Positions 2,307-32,937 are shown, numbered from the whole stretch's first letter. The stretch is DNA of 63,872 bases, filler included, from Reclinomonas americana ATCC 50394 (GCA_048213135.1; 10 parts of 6 records of this genome joined end to end with filler, not necessarily neighbours in it); one strand, 5' to 3'. The notes: generated by a model from the sequence alone, not told the origin. Program-made: numbers and translations.

Positions 2307-2586
2307 CCTTCTTTCGAAGTGGATTCGCGTGGAGTGTGTGCATGGGTGTGTGTGTGTGTGCGCGGTTGCAGGATGCGATGATTGTGAAGTGAAAAAAGTC
2401 GTCAGTTTGCGAAGGACTGACAATTCCGTTCATCTCCATCCGTGACCGACTTGAGGACAACACAGTGAAGAGGGAGAAGAGAGGAGAGAGACACTCCACT
2501 TGCTCATCGAAACAACGAAAAAAGTATTCGAACACACACGCCAGTCATCATCGTCCACAAAGGAGTGATCGTGAATCACACACACC

Positions 2587-2749
2587 ATGGCTGACGACAG
2601 CAAAGACGTGCCACTTTTGCAACGCACAGACACTCTGCTCAACATCGGCTGCATCTTTGCCGCCATCCCACTCGGATTCCTCTTCCGCCGTGTCACCGGT
2701 GAGTGACTGGAGAGAGAGCACAGCCTCACACACACTCTTGAGTGTATAC

Positions 2750-2782
<33 letters not shown>

Positions 2783-4258
2783 GGGAGGGTGTTGACTGTG
2801 ATGTCATCCAGATGTGAAGCTGCGATATCGACTGTCGTACGCGGTTGGCTTGCTCTTCTCCGTGCTGGTCTACAAATGGCACACAATTCAGTACGTGCTA
2901 GTCGCTGCTGCTGTGTACGGCGTGTGCGCAGTGTCATCGCTGCGATCGCGGGCGCACTTGCTGGCGTGGTTCATCACGTTTGGGACGCTGCTTGTTGGGT
3001 GAGTTGTTGGACGATTTCTGTGTCAGGAGAGGAGGGTGCAGCCGCGTGCTCATCATGTCGACCGACGTGAAACAGCAAGTACTACATGATGATGTACCGC
3101 TTCCTCGACTGGGCGCTCGATTTCACCGGTCTGTCTTTTGTGATGCGTCTCTGTGCTGGTGGTTTCGTCTCTCAACTCCGCGATGCGTACACAGGACCAC
3201 TGATGCTAATGGCACTCCGCATCATTGCCTTTGCGTACAACTATCGTGATGGACTGATGTGCGACAAGGAGAAGCCGGCGAGTGATGCCAAGCCTGTTGA
3301 GTTCACGCGTGGCGGGATCTCCGCTCGCAGCCTTGTCCATCTGACATGCACCTCGCTGTTGGTGTTCGTGATGCAGGGTGCTGTTCGCGTGTGGCAACGC
3401 CAGCGCGACTATGCGTTGGACAAGCTGCCGTCGTTGGAGGAGTACTTTGGCTACGTGTTCTTCTTCGGCGCGTATCTGGTGGGGCCCTTCTTCGAGTACC
3501 GCGAGTATCGCGAATTCATTGAGGTGCGCTGCGTGCGGTTCAGTGGTGTTGGTGGTGATTCCGTGCATCCACTGTGGTGCACCACACTCACGTGAGTGCT
3601 GCAGTCGAGGGAGCACAAGGTGGCGCCTGGCTGGCACATTGCCAAGATGACGCTGCTGGGCGTGGCGTTTTTGGTGCCAGCTGGCCTGCACGACTCGATG
3701 GCCATGGATTACTTTGGCACGGATGGACTTGCAGAGTTTCTCGCCAAGCCGCTGTACACTCGGTGTGTTGGGGTGGGGATTCCCGCGGGAGATGGGTGAA
3801 CAATGGTGGCACTGGTCTCACGGTTTTTTGGTTTGCAGGATGTTGCTGGTGTATCTCTCGTGTCTGTTCTTCCGCTCTCGTTTCTATGCCGCGTTGCGTC
3901 CGCAACCTATTAGTATCTCGTGCTCCCCTTGCACGCTTCTGATTGATTGTGTGTTTCTTCCAACTGGTGTAGGTGGCCGCTCGCTGAAGGTTTCGTCTAC
4001 GCATGCACTTTTTTCTCCATTTTTCAGACTCACCATGTGTTTGCTTGTTGGGCAGCCGGCTGCCATGCTGCTGGATTCGGCACTCGAATTGAGCGATCTG
4101 AGGATGGCAAGGAGGTCGTTAAGTACGACCTGTTGCGCAATGTGCGCGCCATTGAGATGGAATTGAGTCCGTCGACCAAGGACTGTGTGGGTGTCTACTG
4201 GAATATTCTCACGGCACGGTTCCTCAAGCAATGTTGCGCGGCCGATGTAGAAACATGA
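2587..4258 (+). CDS. MBOAT-family lysophospholipid acyltransferase (LPCAT/ALE1-like); 3' end lost in gap
   Basis: Hydrophobic N-terminus, then DFTGPLMLMALRIIAFAYNYRDG, LPSLEEYFGYVFFFGAYLVGPFFEYREY, RFYAA|WPLAEG, NVRAIEME and WNILTARFLK. Confidence 0.88.
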
Positions 4259-4362
4259 NNNNNNNNNNNNNNNNNNNNNNNNNNNNNNNNNNNNNNNNNN
4301 NNNNNNNNNNNNNNNNNNNNNNNNNNNNNNNNNNNNNNNNNNNNNNNNNNNNNNNNNNNNNN

Positions 4363-7300
4363 GGGCGCGAAGCTTGTCCAAATTCCATTCGGCTTCCGAA
4401 CGCGCCATGTCTGGTCCGAATCGTCCGGCAAACATACGCTTGGCGACTTTGCAGGCAGTGCGACCGACAATGCTGCGCACTTTCTCTCGCGTCCAGTTGC
4501 CAACGCCAGAGAGCACGCTGGTGGTAGAACAGGCAATGCTGTGCAACAACGCCGTGTCAGCTGCAGCCGGAAAGCAGACAGGACACGACACTAACGCAAC
4601 ATATCCACTTGGTGCATCTGCTCCGCCCGCAGCATGTCGCTCACCGACAGCGTCCACGAAGCGGAGGGCACATCGATCTTGTTGGCCACCACCGTATCGC
4701 ACACCATCTGATAACCGTTTCTTCTGAATCCCTCAATCATGGCCTTTTGGTGCCACTCCGACACGTCCTGCATTGCACAATGAGGTTTGGGCTGCCATCG
4801 CATGCAATACGTGTGTGACCTAAAAAAATCACCATAAACGATTTTCGATCGGCGACATCGTAGAGGAGCAAGAAGCCGTGCGCCTGTCGAAAGTACGAGC
4901 CGACAATGTGCATTGAACTGTCGCTCCCTGCATTCAACATAGTAACAACATGTGGGTGATGAGATTGCGCGAGCGGAGTGCAAAGGCGCACACACCTGGT
5001 GTATCGAGCAGCTGTCCACGGAAACCAAACGCGATACAGTCAGCAATAAAAGAGTGCGGTACAACAATATCGATTGCAGTGCGCACCCAGATTTCGTACA
5101 CATGCCCGCTGTCCACGCGCATATATAACCTGTGCAACTCGGCTGCAACAACCGAATGCTCATGTCAGCGAATTCACACACGCACGCGCACACACGCACA
5201 CACTACGCAACGGCCAATCGTAATGGTCTGTTGATCGCCAGCAACGCCACTGGCAGGAGCAAAACACTCGCAAAAGGTACTCTTGCCAACTGCCACAACA
5301 GTAAGCCGATAACATCGCGTCGACAGGCAAGCACGACAGAAATTCCGAACCACCACGCGAGCCGAGCACCAGCAACTTGATGGTGCAGTGCGGCGACGCG
5401 GTGCCCCACTCTGGTTGCAGTTCAGTCTGCGTCACGCGATAGATACACTCCAGTCAGTGTACACACGCTGTGTGGCGCATCACTACGAGTGCCATCGTAC
5501 CGAGTATTCGGCAATCGGATACGCAGCGCGTTCTTTCGGCCGTGCAAACAATCGTGGTCCACCTGTGCGACGCCGTGCATGAGCGACGAAAGCGAGTGGA
5601 GGAGTGTGATGCAGGCAGTCGATTACAACGCAACGACCGTGCTTCTCGCGGTGGCGATCAGTGAGTACCACGGTCGCACTGTGCAGGCGTGAATCCGCTT
5701 CACTCGCCGACTCCACGTCGCGCACATCGTCTTCGAAAAAGTTAATGTTGCGCAATCGCATGGGACCGATCGGCTGTACACCAATATTCGGCAGTGAGTC
5801 AACACCACAGAGTCGTGTGTGCACTGTGACTAGGCGGCGCACATTCTGACCGCCACCAAGTAGGAATGACTTGGTTGAAATCAAGTCCCGATAACGTTCA
5901 ATGACCGCGTCATCCTCGGCTGTGCGTTCACGTCGTGAGCCACTGGCAAGCACACCCAACCAAAGCGACGCACCTCGAGGGTTCTTGTCGAGCCAGTCCA
6001 AGGTATCCGCGAGTTTCTCCTGAAGCTGCTGGCGGTCGAGTAGTTTGTTTTTGCGCGTCAACTCTGCACCAAGCACAACGCTATCAGCGTCGACAGCAAG
6101 AAGTGCACTACCACCACCACCACCAGCAGTGCGCAACGGTGCTCGAGAAGCGACTGCAAGCAGCTGACGGTGTCCAGCAGCAGAGCGTGCGAGTCGGCGA
6201 GTTCCAGATACTTGCTCGAGTGGATGCGTGCGAGTCGCCGCTCGGCCTTGCTCTTCTCCGAACCCGTGGTCACCTCCAGCTCGCCACCCTCCACTTGCCA
6301 GTTGATATCGGAAGGAAGCGACATGTCAGCCACCTGCGCAGACATGTTTAGCGGAGACGTCACAGAGAGTGAGAGATGATGGTATAAACAATAACACGCA
6401 ACATCGTCTCGTCCGGGCTCCGGTACCATCAGGCGCATGTCACTTGGATCGGCACCCACCATGAGTCGCAGCTTGAACGAGGCCGGCGGTCTCGAATCTG
6501 GACTCTTCCACTCCACCGAGCACCAGATAACGGGGTACACGGTCTCGCAGAGGGTCACCGGCTTGTCGTTGCGCAGACGCCTCCATGTGTGCTCATTGAT
6601 ACCTGTGTGCCACGAGAGAGAAAGTGAGGGTGCCTGGACTGGTGAAAATTAGTGGGCAACACTCGGAGGAGCGAACCGCCGCGATGTTCGAGCACCACAA
6701 AGTTGAGTTTGCCGGGTTTCGGGCCGTGCGGAATGATGACATCGAGGAATTCGTCGGTCGGCTGGTGAGCATCCAGCAGGTACGCCTCCTGCTTGTCGCC
6801 TGCCTTCCTGGCAACCGGTACGCCAAAAATCTGTGTGCGCAGCGTGCCGGCCGTGGGTGCGGTGGGAGACAGAAAGAGACAGAGATCGCACTGACGCTGG
6901 TCGCGCACCTTGAACTTGCGGTCGTCACTTTCGACCACCTGCGCCACTGTGTACGCATGCGAGAGCGCATCATCAAACTCGAACGACGCTCCCGGGTGAC
7001 GTCCACTCAGTTTCGCTGCCAAAATGGCCGCCCCAATAGCCACTGCATCAGCCGGCTGCGGGACAAAGTGTGTTGTGTGCGCGAATGAGATCAAGCGTTG
7101 CGTCGACAACTCTATGTGGACGTGTACACCAACCTCCTTCAGCACCGAGATGTTCTCGTGGAAGAAGCACCGATCGAGAAGAATGTTGAGCAGGTGAGGA
7201 ATGTGGAACGCTCCGCCGCCAAGAATGACACAGTTGATGTCGCGTGGAGTTTTGCCAGCCGCACGCAGTGCATCGTGCACCGGTGTCAAGCAGCGACTGC

Positions 7301-8918
7301 ATGGAGCGAGTGTGAGGCGCAGTACCAGCATATGATTGTAAATGTTACACACAGCAGCACCTGTAAAGCGGAGCCGTCAGATCGTTGAACTGATCCCTCG
7401 TAATGGTCACCTCCAGCGACATGCCGTCGTACAGGTCGTTGATCGACACCGACACCGACACATCTGTCGACAGTGCGCTCTTGGTCTCGGCAGCATGGTG
7501 CAACAGGCGCACCATGGCATCGGCATGATTCCGAATGTCGAATTCGTGCTGCTTGCGAAACTCCTCGCAAAAGAACCTGTGCGCGTCGGGCAGGTTGAGA
7601 GATGAGGGGTTGAATGGTCATACTATGCACTGCATGAGTTGAGCGAAACTGCACGAGACAGTGATCGAAATCAAAGCCACCACACTTGTCGGCACCGGCC
7701 GTTGACAGCACTCGCACGCCAACGGGGGAGAACTCCACAATCGACACGTCGAGGAATGCGGCACCAATGTTGAAAACAAGACCAACACGGTATTCGTTTG
7801 CGTGATCCCAATAGTGAGCGATTGCCGACAGCGTCGACTCGGCCACCTGCGTGTATTGTCTATGAGCAGGCCACGTGCACACAAGGACTCCGTGCCCACC
7901 TGGACAACTGTTGCACTCACCAATGTGACACTGTGGAATCCGGCAAGTATGGCGGCGTCGGAGAGCGCACGTCGCTGTAGTGCCGAGAACACGACGGGTA
8001 CGCTGAGAACAGTGTGCCGAACTTGCTCGCCGGCCGCCCGACTTGCCGCCTCGCGTGCCTGCTCCAGGACCAGTGCCGTTACTGGGTGCAGTGAGAGGGG
8101 AAGAATGGGAGACAATGTGTGAATGAAAGCGATTGTCGACTGCGAGACAAGTGCCGCGGATCACCTTCCTCGAACGCCACGGGGATCTGTCCGCCGGCCG
8201 TCTTCACCTTGGCCAGTGGCTTGAAGTACTTGTTCTGAAAGATCTCGTACACCCAGCGATCCTGCCGCTTCTCCTCGGTCAGCGTCGGCAACAATGGATC
8301 GTCTGCAGGTCGCCGTGAGGAAGTCTTCAAACCCGACACACACACACACAGAGACGGGCACCCAACGAAAGCTGCGCCCGAGAAACATCTTGAAATCGTA
8401 CAGTGTGTCGGCAGCATGCCGCGCATGCCGCATGCGACTGAGGTAGCCCAACACGCGCGCTTGCTGACCAATGCCCGTAAACGTGATTTGCGTGCTCATC
8501 TCCACCGCCTGCGTCACAAGCGCATGACGAACGTGCCCAAGAGACTACCAGTCACACGCACACACACACACACACACAAGAACGCAACAGTGGTGTCGGG
8601 CACCAGGGGCTTATCAGGCGCCAAAGGATCCATGATCAGCGTCGGTCGCACCATCGCCGCACTTGCCGCACCTCGACCGCCTCCCTCATGTGCGCCAGTC
8701 GTCGTCCGCCGCACATGATCCTTCTTCAGCTCACCCACCCAAGGCAGCACGCGTGGCACCGGGCAGTCTGTGGTCTCTGGAGGCGTATCCACCAGTGCCA
8801 CTCGCGTGTACGCCGATCCAAAGTCAATGCCACACATAACAGGCGCAGCTGCGATGCCCGATGGACCCACTCCTTGTCCTCCTCCTCCTCCACTGCCACT
8901 GCCACTGGCACGTCTCAT
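4363..8918 (-). CDS. Divergent Hsp70 fused to C-terminal Rab-like small GTPase, copy A (tail lost in gap)
   Basis: Hsp70 nucleotide-binding domain: CGIDFGSAYTRVA, DFKMFLGRSFHDP, VLSVPVVFSALQRRALSDAAILAG, VAESTLSAIAH, CGGFDFDHCL, VILGGGAFHIP, PADAVAIGAAILAAKL. Lid-like LADTLDWLDKNP. Then, through in-phase GT-AG introns: YPIAEYS|TELQPEWG...IKLLVLGSRG|VGKST, TIG, LLDTPG, SYFRQAHGFLLLYDVADRKSF, VVANKID. Confidence 0.82.
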
Positions 8919-9017
8919 GATTTTCGCGCCACACGGTGATCGGATATCACAGTGCCCGTTGGTCTGGCGGGTGGTGGATTTGTGCGAAACTGGATTTTCT
9001 CATTTTCTTACGTAAAC

Positions 9018-11189
9018 ATGCCGCGACAAAAAGCTGACTCTTCCGGCGATGCCCCAAAGAAGCCCGGTGGTCCGTTCATTCAGTTCCTGCAGGAGGCGCG
9101 TCGCGGGCATATTCCAGTTGCGTGAAAAGAGCTTCTCGCAAAGCACTTCGGAAATGCGGCCGCGGCTGTGACAGGTTGGATCCTGATGGTTTTCTGCTTT
9201 TTTTCTCGTCGTCTCTGCACTCGGTGGATGTAGGCTCTTGCGGGAGTGGGTGGAGGTGATCTGGCAGTGCGCGCCGGCGAGGTGTGGCGCAGTATGACGG
9301 ACGAAGACAGGGAGGTGCGTGTGAGTGTGTGTGTGTACACAGCGCAGAGTGTCTCTCACTCACCATCGCTTTGATGGTGAAGCCGTACCTGGCCATGGTC
9401 AGAGAGGCGACTGAGCGCTACCACGAGTACATGGTGAGCTTGGGCGCGGCGGCAGCGGAAGGCAGCCACAGACCAGCCCGATCGAGACGATCACACGTTT
9501 CCAGACGAGGTGCAGATTCACCATTGCTTTCGTCGTCGTCGTTGTCGTCCTCGGCATCCATGTCGTCGTCCACCACGCCGCTGTTGGATCTGACCTTGGC
9601 GCGTGTGCCCCCACCACCAAAGGTGAGAGAGTGATTACGCATGCGCACCTCCTCTCCACACTGCAATCGCCGCTGCATATGGTGTGTGGTGTCCGGATGA
9701 AAAGAATCGTTGAAATCCTTTTCGCAGCCGCAGCCACTGACGACTGGCGAGAGGTCAAGCGCGAGGTCTCCGACAGCAGCACGTGGCAAGCCGTCGGTGA
9801 GCGTGACGACACCGCCGTCCGGGGCCAGAGTGATGAATGTATGTTCGATATTCATGATCACTCACCACCCACTGCACTCGTGCAGATGTTTGTGGGATCG
9901 GCGGCGTCGAGTGCTGCTGTGTCTGAGGTGACGCAGCCGTCGCCCTCCAGTGTATTCTCTTCGCCGACGCCGTCTCCACCGCCGCCGATGCTGCAAGCAG
10001 TGCCGAGACCAACAACAACCCTCTTGCAAATGCCACACAGATTGTCGACGACAACAACGCCAGAGGTGGTGCTTATTGGTGGTCTCTCGCATATTTTGGC
10101 AAGGGAATCAGTTGATACTCAAGTTGTCTCCGCGCAGCCGATGGAGCAAGGCGAGACCACGGCACGCAGTCGTGCAATCACTGCAAGCGCAGGGGAGGTG
10201 GATTATGTTTTCTTTTGCAATTTGGTCGCGATCACTGTCGTTGTCTCACTCCACACAATTGAACCACAAATAGGCAAGAGGAGCCATGGAGGTGCGCGCA
10301 GCCTCCCCAGCTGCAGCTGAGCGAGGGCAATCGCACTCGCTGTCAGCAGGGTCGTTCACAAAAGACGTGCGTTGTGTGTTTCTTGTCTTTGTTTGTCGTG
10401 TTGTTGTGCGATTGCGATTGACATCTGTGGTGGCGTGTCTCTCTCTGTGTACAGTGGTACAGTGTGGTGCGGCAGAATCTGGTGCGCGACAACCGGCGGT
10501 TCCTGGCCGAGTTGCAGCCGCTCGTGTACCTGCCACAGTCGAGTGCAACGGCCGGTCTCGTGCAAGTCTACATCATGTTTATGATTTGCAAGCGACTGCT
10601 GCAAGATGTCGACGGCACCCGGCTGCCGCCACCGACACCGGCAGTGGCACAGCTGTGGTGCGAGCACTCGGGGAATATTAACAGCTACACGGCGTTCTGC
10701 AACGCCCTCGCAGGGCAGACAATTGCCGTGCCACATGCAACTCGGGTTGAAGTGGCGTTGTCGATGATGAGTGTTCCCGGGCCCGTCGAGAGGACCGTGA
10801 CCGCGCAGCGGCTTCACGCGTTCAACTTGCTGCTTACCACCGAGTTTGACACATCGTACGCCGAGACTTTGGCTGCTGTTGGTACCGGTCGCACTCAGCC
10901 AGGTGCGTCGTCGAGCACCACCACCACGACAACGACGACAACGACGACGACGGCGGTGAAGCGTGTGGCCATTGTCGTCACGGCGGACGCACGAACACTG
11001 AACCTCAAGGTGAAACCGCTGTCGCTGATTCGGCAGTTGCTGAGCAAGCTGGCGGCACACTTGCATGTTCCGGAAAACATGCTGCAGTTGCAACGACCCG
11101 ACGGTGTGGTCCTGCAGCCAAGTGCGACGGTGACCGACTGTGGAATCGTTGACGGCGACCAACTGCAATGCGTCAGGCTATCGCTGTGA
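9018..11189 (+). CDS. HMG-box protein with DUF1399/GRDP-like middle domain and C-terminal ubiquitin/SUMO-like domain
   Basis: HMG box: APKKPGGPFIQFLQEAR...RAGEVWRSMTDEDRE|PYLAMVREATERY. S/P-rich linker. Middle domain: YIMFMICKRL...PTPAVAQLWCEHSGNINSYTAFC. Ubl-like end: VAIVVTADARTLNLKVKP...LQPSATVTDCGIVDGDQLQC. Confidence 0.68.
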
Positions 11190-11313
11190 CCTATTCCATC
11201 CTTCTTTTTTTTTGTAAGCCTCTCGCATTCTCTCCTCTCTGTTTCTCAATCCCGTGGGGTGCTCTCTCCTCTCTGTACAACCATTATTGCGAATCATGTA
11301 CATATAACAATGT

Positions 11314-14300
11314 TTAACAAGCGCACTTTTGTGATTGTTGTCCCTCGTCAGTTGGTTGTGTGGCAGGTCTTTCGAGCGAGATCGTATCCGACCTTTCCGT
11401 GTCGGCCACAGACATGAGATCCTGTGTGCGCACACAGGTTGTGAGCATGTGGAGCACATTCGGCAATGTGGGACGATAAAAAACACGCACCCTAAATCCA
11501 TTGTCGCGCCGTTGTTGCAGTTTCTCGCTCGCCCATTCCGCCTCCGACTGCGCCATTCCGGGACCAAAGCAATGCGCAAACATGCGCTGCACAACAGTCT
11601 CGACGGTGCGACCGACAATGCTGCGCAATTTATGCCGCGTCCAGTTCGGTCGCGTGTTGAACACTGCATCGGCACTGCACGAGATGCTGTGCTCGAACTC
11701 GCCGTCATCAGAAGCACGTGACACACGGTGATGAACGCGACACACACACACACACACCAGTCGACATTGTGCATCTTCTCAAAGCGAAGCAGGTCCGGGA
11801 TGGGCAGTGCCGCCGGCTGATCCACCTTGTTGACCACCACCGTGTCAAATGCAAGTTCGTAGCCATTGCGTCGGTACCCTTCGATCATGGCTTGTCGGTG
11901 CCACGCAGTCAAGTCCTACCGCATAGAATCACCACCATTATGAGTGCACAGTCATTGAAGTGCGTGCGCGCGCGTGTGTGTTTGTTTGACGAGCCTCAAG
12001 TGATTTCGGGTCGCTGGCGTCGCACATGAGAATGAAGCCATGCGCTCGACGGAAATACGAGCCGAGGATCCGCATCGAGGCATCGCCACCGGGAGTGTCC
12101 ATGAGCTGCAGGGGCATGCACGACCGTCTGTGAGGCCGACTGTCACACCAACCGGCAACGAGAAAGACGCACCCAGATCTCGTACACGCGGCCCTCGAAT
12201 GTGCGCATGTACAGTCGATGCAACTCGGCTGTACACACGCCCGACACATGAATCAGGTGCAGGTTGCAACAATCTTCGGTGAAGAAATGCGACGCAACGG
12301 CCAATAGTGATCAGATCATGCTCATCCGAGAGACCCGGTACTGGAGCAAAGCAGTCGCAAAACAGTGTCTTTCCAACTGTTCATCATCATCATCAACAAC
12401 AACAACAACAGTCAAAACCACGACGATGGCACTTGTCATGAGGGAAACAAATACCATTCTTGGAGCCGAGCACGAGCAGTTTCACCACACACTGCACCGC
12501 AGTGGCACCCCACTCGGGTAATATGGTCAGCTGTGCATCGGTGCGTCAGGGACACAGTACACAGCAGCACCGACAGTGGGCGATCTACGCAACCGAGTAC
12601 TCTGCCGTCGGGTACTTGACCCGATCGTGCGGGCGAGCAAAGAGAGCAAAGCCGGCACCAAATACGCGCTCCCTGTACGCCAGTGGATCCATGGCTTTCC
12701 TGACGTTGCGACCCGAACCATGACGTCGTCGGTTCCGGCCGCTGTGATGATCGGAGTGCTCCTTTGTTCGCAGTCGCAGCGGTGGTGACTGCAACAACAA
12801 AGTCGTGATGGGGCAATCCACGGCACACTTGCAGCAGACGCGACAGAACAGCCAGACGTACCACATCTACTTGCCCGAGGGCGACAAACTTGAGTCGCAA
12901 CAGGTGTGATAATCTCTCCATGACGTCGGCGTCGGGGGCTGCCGATTGGAGTCATAAGTTGCTGACCGAATATATAACGAGGAGCGGAAATCGAGCATTC
13001 ACACGAACCTTGTGGCATCGCCTCCAGCCACTCCAACGTGTCTTGCACTGCACGAGACAGTGCTGAACGCACTTCGTGGTGCGAGTGTCGCAGCAGCTCT
13101 GACAAATCGAATAGTATATGTCGAGAAGTGATAAGTGGTACACACAAAACACGCACACACAGCAATCAAGTGAAGTGAGTGCGTGTACGAACGAGTGAAG
13201 AGCGCGGACTCTATGGACGAGATGCAGTTGAGCAGGCGAAGTTGCGGAGCAGAAAAGCGCGCGGCGGACTCTTGTGCGCGACGGATTTGGAGACGGCGTT
13301 CGCGAATCTTACCCATCTTGGCGGGATGAAGGAATATCACACGGCCCTCGGCCACCACTGTGTCCTTCTCGTCGCCCTCGAATTTCTGGATCCCAACACA
13401 GAGAGCAATGACTTGTCAGCACACGAATACGCGATCACTGCCATCAACCCCCGAGTTTGTGACTTGCCGCTGAAAACAGCATATCAATGTCGCTCGGATC
13501 GTCTCCGACACGCAGGCGGATGCGGTATGACTGCGACTCAGGCTCCGCCTCCGTCTCGGTGGTCAGGCGGCCGTGGATAACGGGGTACACGGTTGATGAG
13601 AGCGACACAGGCTTGCCCCGAGAAATCAGTCGCCATGTTTCCTCTCGAATGCCTGCCATCACGTGTGATGAGTGTGAGTGATTCATCCTTTCCAAACACG
13701 GAAACAGCGTGCGCACTACCTCCGCGGTGCTCAAGGACGGTGATGAACGGAGACCAGTTTGGCTGGGCGGGCGATACTCGCAGATCCACTTCTCCGCCGG
13801 CAGCACGGTGGCCATCGAGCGGATAGCCGTGTTGTGCGTCCTCCTCTTGTGGCACACCAAATATCTGCAACATTGTTTCTCATTCCGTGCCGTCACAGAC
13901 ACCCCCGTCTTCTTCCTGCTTTTCTGACGCACCTCGTATTCGGTGGGCCCCACTCGCCGAGCCAATGTGTACCCGTGCGACAGAGCATCAGTGAACTGGA
14001 AATCGTCGGCTGGCGACAGCTGCTCGCTGAACTTGGCGCCCAAGATTGCGGCGCCCATCGCCACATCGTCGTCATCCTGCCGAGCGCACACGATGAGATG
14101 CACGTGGGACAAAGAAAGACTTGACGAACGATTCGCACGCACCGCTTTCATGACTTGAATGTGCGAGTGGAAGAAGCAGCGCTCCAGCAACACGTCGTGC
14201 ACTCGCGGAATATGCGACGCACCACCGCCCAGCACAACACACTCGATATCGTTGGGGGTGAGACCAGCATTGCGCAGCGCCTCGTGCACCGGTGTGAGAC

Positions 14301-14871
14301 ACGGACTGTGAGTGTCGACAGCAGTGAGCGAGAGAATGTGACATGAAAGGGCAGTCTCACATACTCACCTGAGCAGGTGCGCTGTGACCTCATTCATCTT
14401 GGCTCGCGTCAGCCTGTAGTTCAAGTCGAGGCCGTCGTACAGATCGGCCAGTCGCACAATGTCCACATCGTCCGACGACAGGATCTTCTTCGCCTGCTCT
14501 GCTCGCTGCATGAGACGGATGCGGGCCACAGCATCGGTTTTCATCGAGCGCCGATGCGCCGTTTGGAACTCCACACTCAACAGCCTGTGTGCGCACTGAT
14601 GAGATGCACGTCAAAGGCATGCATACATACGCTCACCACAGCCGCGTAACTCGGCAATGGCACTGTCGAATGCACGGCCACCGCAGTCCTCGTTGCCGGC
14701 CGTGCCCAACACTCGCATGCCCTGTCTCGTCATTTCCACGATCGACACACTGCAAAATCGCGCTCCGAGCACATAGACCAGCACCGTGCGCTGCTTGTGA
14801 CCGTGATCCCAGTAGTGTGTGACGGCAGCAAGTGTGCTTTCCGTGACCTGCAACGATGGTGGTGCATCAGT
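11314..14871 (-). CDS. Divergent Hsp70 fused to C-terminal Rab-like small GTPase, copy B (N-terminus cut by spacer)
   Basis: VTESTLAAVTHYWDH, CGGRAFDSAI, VVLGGGASHIP, DVAMGAAILGAK, VQDTLEWLEAMP, then YPTAEYS|LTILPEWG...VKLLVLGSKN|VGKT, LMDTPGG, SYFRRAHGFILMCD, VVVNKVD, ISCSA and tail ...TQPTDEGQQSQKCAC*. Several intron positions are shared with copy A. Confidence 0.82.
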
Positions 14872-14915
14872 NNNNNNNNNNNNNNNNNNNNNNNNNNNNN
14901 NNNNNNNNNNNNNNN

Positions 14916-14927
14916 TTAATTAATTAA
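14916..14927. other. Artificial contig spacer TTAATTAATTAA
   Basis: Six-frame stop linker flanked by 44 N on each side; recurs identically nine times. Confidence 0.97.
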
Positions 14928-14971
14928 NNNNNNNNNNNNNNNNNNNNNNNNNNNNNNNNNNNNNNNNNNNN

Positions 14972-15413
14972 TCTCCACGCAGCACGCTTAATCACCTTGA
15001 CCGCCACCTGCAACACATAAAAGAGAAAGGTTTGCATGAGGTGCTTCCCTCCTCTCTCACACACACCAGAGAGAGTGTGTGTGTGTGTGACGTACTTGCG
15101 CGCCAGCGGGTTGTCGTGGTCCGAGATCGACAAGTCGCTGCCCGAGGTACACCGTGCTGCACACTTGCATGTGAGCAGCTCATGCACACGTACTTGCTCT
15201 CTCTCTCTCTCTCACGAAACCACTCACCCTTGCACACCGCTGTGTGAACAAGACAGAGTGTGTGTTTTGTGTGAGATGACCATGTTCACAGACAGGCAGA
15301 CGCTCGACGCGTGTGTGCGCACACCTGCCGAGCTTCTTCAGCAGCTGGTAGTGATCATGGAAGGACGCGCGCACTGCTGATGCAGACGACGATGACGCCG
15401 AGGCAAGCGACAT
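14972..15413 (-). CDS. Ser/Thr protein kinase, N-terminal part only
   Basis: MSLAS...FHDHYQLLKKLG|SGVQG|TVYLG...|VAVKVIKR: Gly-rich loop (built with a 12-nt microexon) and VAVK lysine. Truncated by the spacer. Confidence 0.8.
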
Positions 15414-15503
15414 GACTGAGACAATGCTGACGAAGGACACGAGGACGCATTCATTTCCAGTCCCTTCCAGTCTTTCTCCACGCTTGTTGGGTTCTCTTCT
15501 TTT

Positions 15504-18168
15504 TTAGAACGGGCGGTCGGTGAGAGACGGCACGGGGCGTGCCGCGAAGAAATCAATCAGCGTGTTGACGTCGCGCACGATGCGGTCCTTGGTGAAGCCA
15601 AAGTGTGCCATCACATCCTGCGATGCATGGTGAGCACACTGTTTGCATGACATGCAGTGGCTGTGATAATGGCGTACCTTCAGCGGAGCACTGGCACCAA
15701 AGGTGCGCATGCAGTGCTGAGCATGTGAGTAGCGGTCCCAGCCTGTGCAAAGAATCGTGCAAGTCAGTCGGCAGTGACACAGGAGGGGAAGGAAGATCTC
15801 CTGGGCGCGCACCAACAGCGCTGTGGGCCTCGACTGCCAGCACCGGCACGCCAGCGGGGAACACTGTCTGCTTGTACTCCAGCGACTGCTCCTCGAAGAT
15901 CTCCCACGACGGCATGGAGACCACGCGCACGTTCTGTTCAGGGGTGAGACATGCATAATCAACAGCAACGAGTGTGCACGTGGCGGTGTACGCACCCGGC
16001 CGGCCTCCTTGGCAGCATCCACGCACAGCGACACCTCACTGCCCGACGCCACCAAAATCGCGTGCGGCTCACCGGCAAAGCTGTCGGTCAAAGCGTACGC
16101 TCCGCGGAAGACGCCCTCAATCGACGAGCCCTGCAGCTGCGGCAGAGCCTGGCGCGACAGTGCCAGCACACATGGGCCATGGCGACGCTCAATGGCCACC
16201 GCGTACGCACCCGAGGTCTCGTTGCCGTCGGCCGGACGGATGTAGTACATGCCCGGCATGGCACGCAGCATGGTCGGCACCTCAATCGGCTGATGTGTCG
16301 GTCCGTCCTCGCCGAGGCCAATCGAGTCGTGTGTGGCCACGTACACGACACCGTGGTGTGCGAGAGCCGACAGACGGACAGCGCCGGCGGCGTAGCCAAT
16401 AAAGTTGAGGAACGTGCCGCAGTACGGGATGAATCCACCGTATGCCGCCAGGCCGTTGCTGATGGCCGCCATGCCGTGCTCGCGCACGCCAAAGCGCAGG
16501 TAGCGACCCTCGTAGTGGTCCTGCGCACCACACAGGAGAGGTTCAGCAGAAGCACAGGGAAGTAAAATGCAGCGGACATCGAAAGCACCTTCTGGAAGTC
16601 GTGGCCGCCCTTGATCTCGGTCAGGTTGGATGGCGTCAGATCGGCCGAGCCACCAATCAGTGTCGGCAGGTGTCGCGCAATGGCGTTGAGGGTGAGCTCC
16701 GAGGTCTGACGAGTGGCCAGCGCCTTGTCGCCCGGGTGGTACTTGGGCAACGCATCGCGCCACGCAGTGCCGAGCTCGCTGCGAGAGAACGCCGCATAGT
16801 CGCCAGCCTGGTCCGGGTGCTCGGCCAGGAAACGATCGACGGCCGCATGCCACTCGGCCTCCTTGGCCGCACCACGCTCCGCCGCCTCGTGGAACGCCGC
16901 ACGCACACTGTCGGGCACCACAAACGACTGCGCCGGGTCGAAGCCAAAGGCGGTCTTCAGGGCCGCCAAGTTGGCGGGTCCAAGAGGTGCTCCGTGCACT
17001 TTCTCCGTGCCGGCCAACACCGAGCCGAAACCAATGGTGGTTCTGCGCGGAGAAGAATGAGAGAGAGAGAGAGAGAACGCGCGCGTGTGAGAAAGAGAGA
17101 GAGGCGACGCAACTGCAGACGAATGATCGACGGGCGGTCGGTGACGGCGCGCGCCTCGTTGATGGCACGTCGAATGCCTTCGAGATCCGTGTCGCCGTTC
17201 TCCACGTACTGCACATGCCAGCCAGCAGCGTGGAAGCGACCGTCCGTGTCCTCCGTGAACGCCAACTCCGTGCCGCCGTCAATGGAGATGTGGTTGTCGT
17301 CGTAGATGAGAACCAGGCGGCCGAGACCGAGGTGACCGGCCAGCGAGATGGCCTCTTGCGAGATGCCCTCCATCAGGCATCCATCGCCGCAAAACACATA
17401 CACGTAGTGATCGGCGACCTCCGGAGCGAAGCGCTTGGCCAGGTGGTGCTGCGCAATCGCAAAGCCCACCGCGTTGGCCAACCCCTGTCCCAGCGGACCC
17501 GTGGTGACCTCCACACCCGCCGTGTGGCCGCTCTCCGGATGGCCCGGCGTCCTACGCGACACGATAATGAGGAGACGACGAGAGGTAAACGAGGGAAACG
17601 GCGCCCTGTCTCTTGGTGTACGCAACAGAGAGCCGAGCGAGCGGAAGCGACGCAGCTGGTCCAGCGACACATCCTCGACTCCCATCAAATGCAACATCGT
17701 GTACAGCAACTGCACAATCACAACTCACTCAGCACTCCTCGAGACACAGCAGCAGAGGAGGCTGTCACGCAACTGCACAGCCGTGACCATTGGAGAGCAC
17801 GAAACGATCGCGGGCGTACTGCAAAAGAAGAGCACAATGTGAGCAATCAAAATCACAGATGCAAAGATGCGTTTTGTGTGATGGGGAGGCAAAGCAACGT
17901 ACCCACGAGGTGTTGCGCGGGTTGAAGTTGATGAACTCCTTCCACAAGACGTAGGCCACAGGCGCCATGCCCAGCGGCATGCCTATTCACACGCACACAA
18001 AGGAGACAACACACACAAAGACGTGAGAATCAGCTTCGTGTCTCTCTCTCCCCTGTGCGTGTACATCATGTGTCACATGCCTGGGTGACCAGAGTTGCCG
18101 GCTTGCACTGCGTCGGCGGCAAGCACGCGGATAGTGTTGATAGCCAGTGTCTCTGCCTCGGAAGCCAT
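15504..18168 (-). CDS. TKT: Transketolase
   Basis: [60 protein letters not shown]...[47 protein letters not shown]. Confidence 0.97.
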
Positions 18169-26159: not shown

Positions 26160-26203
26160 NNNNNNNNNNNNNNNNNNNNNNNNNNNNNNNNNNNNNNNNN
26201 NNN

Positions 26204-26215
26204 TTAATTAATTAA
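26204..26215. other. Artificial contig spacer
   Basis: N44-TTAATTAATTAA-N44. Confidence 0.97.
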
Positions 26216-26259
26216 NNNNNNNNNNNNNNNNNNNNNNNNNNNNNNNNNNNNNNNNNNNN

Positions 26260-32837: not shown

Positions 32838-32881
32838 NNNNNNNNNNNNNNNNNNNNNNNNNNNNNNNNNNNNNNNNNNNN

Positions 32882-32893
32882 TTAATTAATTAA
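32882..32893. other. Artificial contig spacer
   Basis: N44-TTAATTAATTAA-N44. Confidence 0.97.
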
Positions 32894-32937
32894 NNNNNNN
32901 NNNNNNNNNNNNNNNNNNNNNNNNNNNNNNNNNNNNN

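Follow-up and report, generated by a model that had tools for sequence, protein, structure and literature searches.

A divergent Rab-derived module with a probable Rab-type prenylation tail at the C terminus of an Hsp70-like protein in Reclinomonas americana

Can a chaperone-like protein carry, at its own C terminus, the lipid-anchoring tail of a Rab GTPase? The question is raised by a gene on the minus strand of a 63,872-nucleotide stretch of Reclinomonas americana ATCC 50394 DNA (GCA_048213135.1; 10 parts of 6 records joined end to end with filler, hereafter the window), in which an Hsp70-like part is followed by a small GTPase module and a tail ending in Cys-Ala-Cys. This gene, here called copy B (14871 to 11314), stands in tandem with a paralogue on the same strand, copy A (~8918 to a gap of N at 4362). 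Our analysis indicates that copy B probably does end in a true prenylation tail of the Rab type, borne by a new protein of several domains that resembles the "large Rabs."

Direct translation of the minus strand from 11421 to 11314 yields DLMSVADTERSDTISLERPATQPTDEGQQSQKCAC followed by a stop, and the stop-to-stop open reading frame (ORF) to which it belongs (11778..11314, 154 aa) has the C-terminal end ...NGFRVRVFYRPTLPNVLHMLTTCVRTQDLMSVADTERSDTISLERPATQPTDEGQQSQKCAC. The last codons are Cys (TGC, 11325-11323), Ala (GCT, 11322-11320), Cys (TGT, 11319-11317) and the stop (TAA, 11316-11314), and a di-cysteine motif, KCAC, is present after a variable tail. An initial annotation of this locus had placed a CXC ending past an NGFR/DLMS boundary (a slash marks the junction here and at splice sites below); codons 11325-11314 do read Cys-Ala-Cys-stop, and the boundary corresponds to a candidate intron at 11490..11422. 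The 35 residues of the terminal exon include 7 acidic and 3 basic residues, 5 Ser, 5 Thr, 5 Gln and 2 Pro, and the residue count reveals no polybasic stretch in this exon. A hydrophobic-x-hydrophobic triplet, ISL, lies 16 residues ahead of the first Cys, roughly the place of the C-terminal interacting motif (IKL) with which Rab7 binds Rab escort protein (REP), a putative likeness of position. That CXC is a motif for GGTase II, the Rab geranylgeranyltransferase (RabGGTase), as the initial annotation held, is borne out by excerpts from PMC5902221, according to which the enzyme recognizes this motif after REP binding, usually modifies both cysteines, and leaves ends that are carboxymethylated in the case of CXC but not of CC.

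The candidate last intron has the donor AGG/GTGCGT and the acceptor CACAG/G; of the 15 other introns in the copy B model, 3 share the GTGCGT donor and 4 the CACAG acceptor. We regard the intron as credible because its donor, acceptor and length resemble those of the other model introns (52–94 nt). With a length divisible by three and no stop inside, the intron leaves the CAC C terminus unchanged whether it is spliced or retained. Upstream, the reading frame of the tail extends through the candidate intron into an exon conserved between the paralogues, with 59% identity to copy A. Between the presumed final G-domain helix (HKLRSIVGRTVETVVQRMF, assigned by eye) and the terminal exon lie ~25 residues (GPGMAQSEAEWASEKLQ…) that are kept in both copies; the whole segment past the helix amounts to 60 residues, or 84 with the intron retained. 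There is little space for a further copy B exon, given that a convergent plus-strand gene has its stop at 11189, 124 nt from that of copy B. To gauge chance, we collected from all six frames of the window every ORF that spans 30 aa or more between stops, 1105 in total (Cys, 4.6% of residues): CXC ends 4 of them and any Rab-type di-cysteine motif (CC, CXC or CCX1-3) ends 20, the copy B ORF being counted in both figures. A CXC ending is thus rare by chance.

For such a tail to anchor an Hsp70-like protein, both parts must belong to one polypeptide. Exon models of both copies were curated by hand under the guidance of the homology between them. The copy B model comprises 17 exons that stay open for 810 codons (810 aa) from the scaffold edge at 14871 to the TAA, separated by 16 introns of 52–94 nt with 15 GT donors and one GC donor and with 14 CAG, one AAG and one TAG acceptor. 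The copy A model comprises 10 exons, open for 540 codons (540 aa) from the beta-rich, substrate-binding-like region that follows the Hsp70 ATPase as far as the N gap, and its 9 introns (61–75 nt) are all of the GT...CAG type. A single copy A exon of 563 nt (6063..5501) takes in the lid-like helix (…LADTLDWLDKNP…) and extends to a block …LFARPKERAAYPIAEYS that stands immediately ahead of the first GTPase exon. From the lid-like region to the GTPase every non-coding stretch measures at most 94 nt, and the model translations of the first GTPase exon contain no Met in either copy. The open spliced frames, short introns, small gaps and missing Met support the view that the Hsp70-like part and the GTPase form one polypeptide in both copies, as predicted from the models. 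The only GC donor of copy B (GAG/GCTCGT) opens the intron after exon 14 (11916-11994, minus strand); true GC-AG splicing, a sequencing error or incipient decay of copy B could account for it. The homologous intron of copy A has an ordinary GT donor.

The Hsp70 identity of the N-terminal part comes from its nucleotide-binding domain (NBD). Against a curated cut-off of 20.6 bits for Pfam HSP70 (PF00012), NBD exons of copy B scored 36.1, 29.5 and 26.0 bits and those of copy A 41.3, 33.5, 32.5 and 22.2 bits, with matches spanning profile positions 112-347 of 599. The exon encoding subdomain IIB in copy A matches Ssb1 and Hsc70 in the PDB at 1.5e-8, and all of the best 60 of its 94 PDB matches are Hsp70-family chains; another copy A ORF has a weak match to DnaK. 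The canonical phosphate-2 loop of Hsp70 reads DLGGGT, and by eye its counterpart is degenerate here, NIGAAF in A and VLGARF in B. Beyond the NBD, the scanned ORFs gave no Pfam or PDB match for a substrate-binding domain, and the beta-rich block and the lid-like …LEWLE/LDWLD… helix were discerned by eye alone.

Comparison of the two copies indicates that this layout has been maintained. A tblastn search of copy A ORFs against copy B returned 16 rows, 12 of them collinear in-frame blocks and 4 overlapping matches in other frames. In 10 ungapped blocks with 451 aligned codons in total the copies share 54% amino-acid identity, with proportions of nonsynonymous and synonymous differences of pN = 0.31 and pS = 0.69, and pN is below pS in all 10 blocks, Hsp70 and GTPase parts alike. 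Synonymous sites are saturated between the copies, and together with the low pN this points to an old duplication after which the Hsp70-like and GTPase parts were both retained as protein; the pattern is one of purifying selection. The window contains no third paralogue. Intron positions in the GTPase part are common to A and B save for one extra intron in A, absent from B, which leaves a micro-exon of 16 nt (…LLDTP; 4996-5011, minus strand) inside the G3 motif DTP/GSD.

Is the GTPase a Rab? Its sequence supports a module that is Rab-derived and very divergent. Both copies possess a P-loop of the form GxxxxGK(S/T), GSKNVGKT in B and GSRGVGKS in A, assembled across an intron at the same position. 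The module keeps the switch I Thr (…ITIG) and DxxG, the G4 motif NKxD is present as NKVD in B and NKID in A, and G5 is degenerate (CSA and CST, respectively). We regard the G domain as Rab-derived because the exon encoding switch II and beta4 matches Rab-type chains in both paralogues. Its best PDB match is Rab1A for copy B (E = 5.9e-4) and likewise rab1a for copy A (E = 6.8e-5), the switch II/beta4 stretch aligning with Rab1A over 40 residues. Among the best 60 of 86 matches for B (E up to 1) and the best 60 of 154 for A, the names are Rab1, Ypt1, Rab2, Rab3, Sec4, Rab10, Rab26, Rab27, Rab35, Rab43 and RASEF, with uninformative labels in 2–3 rows of each list; no Ras, Rho, Ran or Arf name occurs among these 60 matches per copy. 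The first criteria of the Rabifier, in the extracts of PMC3192815, are best matches to Rabs over other small GTPases, and its family test calls for at least one RabF motif. At the level of the switch II exon, and at that level only, the best matches of both copies are to Rabs over other small GTPases. In the PDB alignments YFRRAHG (B) and YFRQAHG (A) align with YYRGAHG of Rab1A, and the YFRRA/YFRQA stretch may correspond to RabF4; the letters of the five RabF motifs reportedly come from Pereira-Leal and Seabra in 2000. The initial annotation had derived the GTPase from a genuine Rab gene captured together with its tail. Rab derivation is upheld by the switch II exon; joint capture with the tail would be a sensible way to interpret a Rab module placed at the C terminus and still terminating in CXC, qualified by the ~25 paralogue-conserved residues, untypical of Rabs, that separate the G domain from the tail.

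The explanation that we favor, with moderate confidence, is that the G domain binds REP and that the CAC end receives two geranylgeranyl groups and is methylated, tethering an Hsp70-like protein to a membrane through a module that is probably GTP-bound. Copy B, and presumably copy A also, would encode one long protein consisting of a divergent Hsp70-like N terminus (NBD, beta-rich region and lid-like helices), a linker of ~130-190 residues, the C-terminal Rab-derived G domain, the short conserved segment and the 35-residue acidic tail ending in Cys-Ala-Cys. REP would present the G domain to RabGGTase, both cysteines would be geranylgeranylated and the last one carboxymethylated, and the whole Hsp70-like protein would thereby come to lie on the cytosolic face of a membrane. 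With the catalytic Gln replaced by Gly in B and by Ser in A, as in Rnd1/Rnd3, the G domain is probably GTP-locked and may serve as a constitutive address-and-anchor tag, not as a cycling switch. Lipidation, GTP locking and membrane targeting, like everything beyond a protein ending in CAC on a Rab-derived domain, we infer. What stands from the earlier proposal that the whole Hsp70-containing protein is lipid-anchored is accordingly its continuity, the Hsp70-like part and the GTPase sharing one spliced frame in both copies, and its lipid anchor would depend on prenylation of the tail.

A number of results weigh against this explanation, and most of them would fit a C terminus that is real but not a RabGGTase substrate, its G domain having drifted too far for REP and its cysteines being a leftover, a chance feature or a device for some other use (e.g. 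S-acylation or metal binding). REP and RabGGTase must recognize the Rab fold, and in our reading of the alignments one of the five RabF motifs is recognizable (the RabF4-like one), whereas the RabF1-3 positions are not conserved, which makes REP binding uncertain. The catalytic Gln of DxxGQ is gone (DTPGGD in B and DTPGSD in A). Three of the four copy B GTPase pieces queried have no Rab match in the PDB; neither the G1/switch I exon nor the C-terminal ORF taken whole had a PDB match at E up to 10, and the NKxD exon had 8 weak matches, all non-Rab. The Pfam Ras profile scored 17.6 bits on the copy B switch II ORF, under its cut-off of 21.6 bits, and Pfam gave no family either for the remaining GTPase ORFs of copy B or for the three ORFs scanned from the GTPase region of copy A. 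Typical Rab tails are shorter than the 60- or 84-residue segment that follows the last helix here. Searches for relatives, which used single exons or read-through ORFs as queries and were limited in reach accordingly, found none among longer proteins in 120 candidates for the C-terminal ORF or in 27 for the NKxD exon alignment. Copy A gives no second view of the ending, as its coding frame enters the N gap 4259-4362 directly after ...EAEWNLDKLRA and its C terminus is hidden, and some di-cysteine motif does end 20 of the 1105 ORFs. Even so, we consider a non-substrate C terminus unlikely, since the exact CXC is found in 4 of those ORFs, it terminates a domain in which the exon conserved best shows a specific likeness to Rabs in A and B alike, and a polar tail of the expected kind precedes it.

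Doubts of another sort concern the gene itself. The model could be wrong in its 3' end or frame, the GTPase could be transcribed apart from the Hsp70-like part, or copy B could be an unexpressed, decaying copy; the GC donor, which is required to hold the conserved exon 15 in frame, the truncation of the 5' part of copy B by the scaffold joint at 14871, the weak conservation of the copy B linker exons relative to copy A and an in-frame Met in exon 10 of B (…KAMDPLAY…) are the weak points of a one-gene model. We nevertheless find this improbable in view of open spliced frames of 810 and 540 codons with uniform short introns, of gaps between the lid-like region and the GTPase that are all under 100 nt and leave no space for an intergenic region, of the 563-nt copy A exon that links the lid-like region to the pre-GTPase block, and of a pN well under pS in 10 of 10 blocks; the frame of the tail is, moreover, independent of the last intron. 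An artefact of assembly, in which a chimeric join or a sequencing error in a small, gap-rich scaffold created the fusion or its ending, is suggested by the makeup of the window, which strings small scaffolds together and contains many N gaps, and by the gap at 4259-4362, which seems to conceal the 3' ends of two convergent genes. This we hold to be very improbable, because the same domain order and intron positions recur in two copies differing at 46% of residues and because 11190-14871 is free of gaps.

Table 1. Features of copy A, copy B and their surroundings in the window
Feature	Position	Strand	Remarks
N gap hiding copy A C terminus	4259..4362		plus-strand MBOAT gene enters from the other side
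Copy A GTPase exons	4363..5426	-	P-loop GSRGVGKS, DTPGSD, NKID, IACST; frame open at N gap
Copy A Hsp70-like part and linker	5501..8918	-	GIDFGSAYT… start region, NBD exons, beta region, lid-like helices
Last ORF of convergent gene	10422..11189	+	ubiquitin-like (Rad60-SLD) C terminus
Terminal exon of copy B	11314..11421	-	35-residue polar acidic tail ending K-C-A-C, then stop
Candidate last intron of copy B	11422..11490	-	69 nt, in frame, stop-free
Exon 16 of B	11491..11686	-	G5-like ISCSA; putative last helix HKLRSIVGRTVETVVQRMF; extra paralogue-conserved segment GPGMAQSEAEWASEKLQ; 59% identical to A
Exon 15 of B	11758..11915	-	G4 motif NKVD; 60% identical to A
Exon 14 of B	11995..12105	-	G3/switch II DTPGGD, without catalytic Gln; YFRRAHG; beta4; Rab-type exon
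Exons 11-13 of B	12173..12530	-	P-loop GSKNVGKT split by intron; switch I ...ITIG; interswitch
Exons 7-10 of B	12594..13411	-	lid-like helices (…QDTLEWLEAMPQ) and linker to …KYPTAEYS; inter-exon gaps 52-94 nt
Exons 1-6 of B	13464..14871	-	Hsp70-like NBD (Pfam HSP70, from position ~167 on), beta-rich region

The surroundings of the two copies are listed with them in Table 1. The window joins small scaffolds through spacers of 44 N, TTAATTAATTAA and 44 N, found at 14872-14971 and at ten further places (e.g. 26160-26259 and 32838-32937), with N gaps inside scaffolds as well; copy B is therefore cut at 14871, and the sequence above 14972 is unrelated to it. Many short GT...AG introns interrupt the genes of the window, which marks it as eukaryotic. 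Across 4363-14871 on the minus strand many introns contain runs of (TG)n/(CA)n or (CT)n and the donor is often GTTGCGT or GTGCGT, with the result that spurious CVCVCV or SLSLSL peptides arise in read-through ORFs. An intron-bearing MBOAT acyltransferase gene on the plus strand (~2575-4258; Pfam MBOAT, 1.6e-9, profile positions 19-113 of 337) reaches the N gap from below. As this gene and copy A converge on the gap, its 104 N conceal two 3' ends, and the gap is probably longer than written. A copy A tail below the gap was considered and rejected, the DNA there being antisense to MBOAT-like coding sequence, with two short minus-strand frames that have no terminal Cys. In the gene convergent with copy B, a run of 12 Thr precedes the ubiquitin-like Rad60-SLD domain; with their stops 124 nt apart, this gene and copy B must have 3' untranslated regions that are very short or overlap. 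On the scaffold beyond copy B, short minus-strand exons at 14972-15451 (…YQLLKKLG…, …VAVKVIK…) resemble by eye the beginning of a protein kinase. A transketolase gene with in-frame introns lies at ~15504-17372 on the minus strand; its best named relatives are in Sphaeroforma, other Ichthyosporea and Mucoromycota (42–52% identity), and a collection of 5.8 billion proteins contained no near-identical transketolase. Judged by this gene, the one housekeeping gene searched, the source would look like an opisthokont without proteins of its own in the database.

Further searches for relatives of the two copies covered proteins, metagenomes and RNA families. An exhaustive phmmer search with the 306-aa Hsp70-like ORF of copy B against 1.84 billion representatives gave one match (E = 7e-7), which we rejected as a relative because it reads as an unrelated repeat protein. 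For metagenome loci, one alignment (A1) gave 597 pattern matches, none of them confirmed; another (A2) gave 192, and the two reported as confirmed were discarded as pattern-only matches in off-frames of unrelated genes. The best ESM Atlas score, 0.80, was uninformative, and Rfam had no match within the window. Neither full-text searches of the literature nor those of the sequence databases turned up an Hsp70-Rab fusion. That Rab tails may end in CXC is textbook knowledge; a Rab module as the C-terminal anchor of an Hsp70-like protein we did not find in print. If the tail is lipidated, nature would here have joined a chaperone directly to a tag of membrane identity, and the large Rab design would gain a non-metazoan member without EF-hands.

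Set beside known systems, the module of copy B resembles conventional Rabs, Rab1/Ypt1 best, in its G1 motif, switch I Thr, DxxG, NKxD and polar tail ending in CXC. It differs from them in that the G domain ends a protein of more than 800 residues, Gly or Ser stands in place of Gln, RabF1-3 are unrecognizable, an extra conserved segment follows the G domain and the PDB returned no Rab match outside the switch II exon. Judged by these motifs it is no conventional Rab, the catalytic Gln being absent and most of the RabF positions gone. A parallel in layout is offered by the large Rabs Rab44, Rab45/RASEF and Rab46/CRACR2A, which published abstracts and PMC8303950 describe as carrying functional domains at the N terminus and, at the C terminus, a Rab domain and a site for prenylation. 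Copy B likewise appears to place N-terminal functional domains before a C-terminal Rab module and a putative prenylation site, and RASEF is among the PDB matches listed for the switch II exons; unlike the large Rabs, no ORF scanned gave an EF-hand family in Pfam, and the resemblance is one of layout only. The Hsp70-like part, in turn, is like cytosolic Hsp70 (Ssb1, Hsc70) in that NBD exons of both copies exceed the Pfam HSP70 cut-off, and unlike it in being far more divergent, with an altered phosphate-2 loop and a substrate-binding part without Pfam match.

Another parallel is Rbj/RJL (DNAJC27). In the sections of PMC6776491 that bear on it, Rbj has an N-terminal G domain with His at the position of the catalytic Gln, is constitutively GTP-bound, and is physically coupled to the Hsp70 system through a C-terminal J domain, an Hsp70 co-chaperone module thought to engage Hsp70; the same source gives Ser at the Gln position of Rnd1/Rnd3, where GTPase activity is lost. 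Unlike Rbj, copy B fuses the Hsp70-like protein itself, and its G domain is C-terminal with a CXC end, while the word "prenyl" is absent from the Rbj paper (PMC6776491). Tentatively, and with more doubt than we attach to the tail, the two paralogues could represent a family of chaperones anchored to membranes and restricted to one lineage, kept in two copies by purifying selection ever since the old duplication, in which a GTP-locked, doubly geranylgeranylated Rab module would act as the organelle address of an Hsp70-like ATPase, a cis counterpart of Rbj/RJL. In its logic copy B is like Rbj/RJL, a G domain lacking the catalytic Gln being joined in both to a component of the Hsp70 system.

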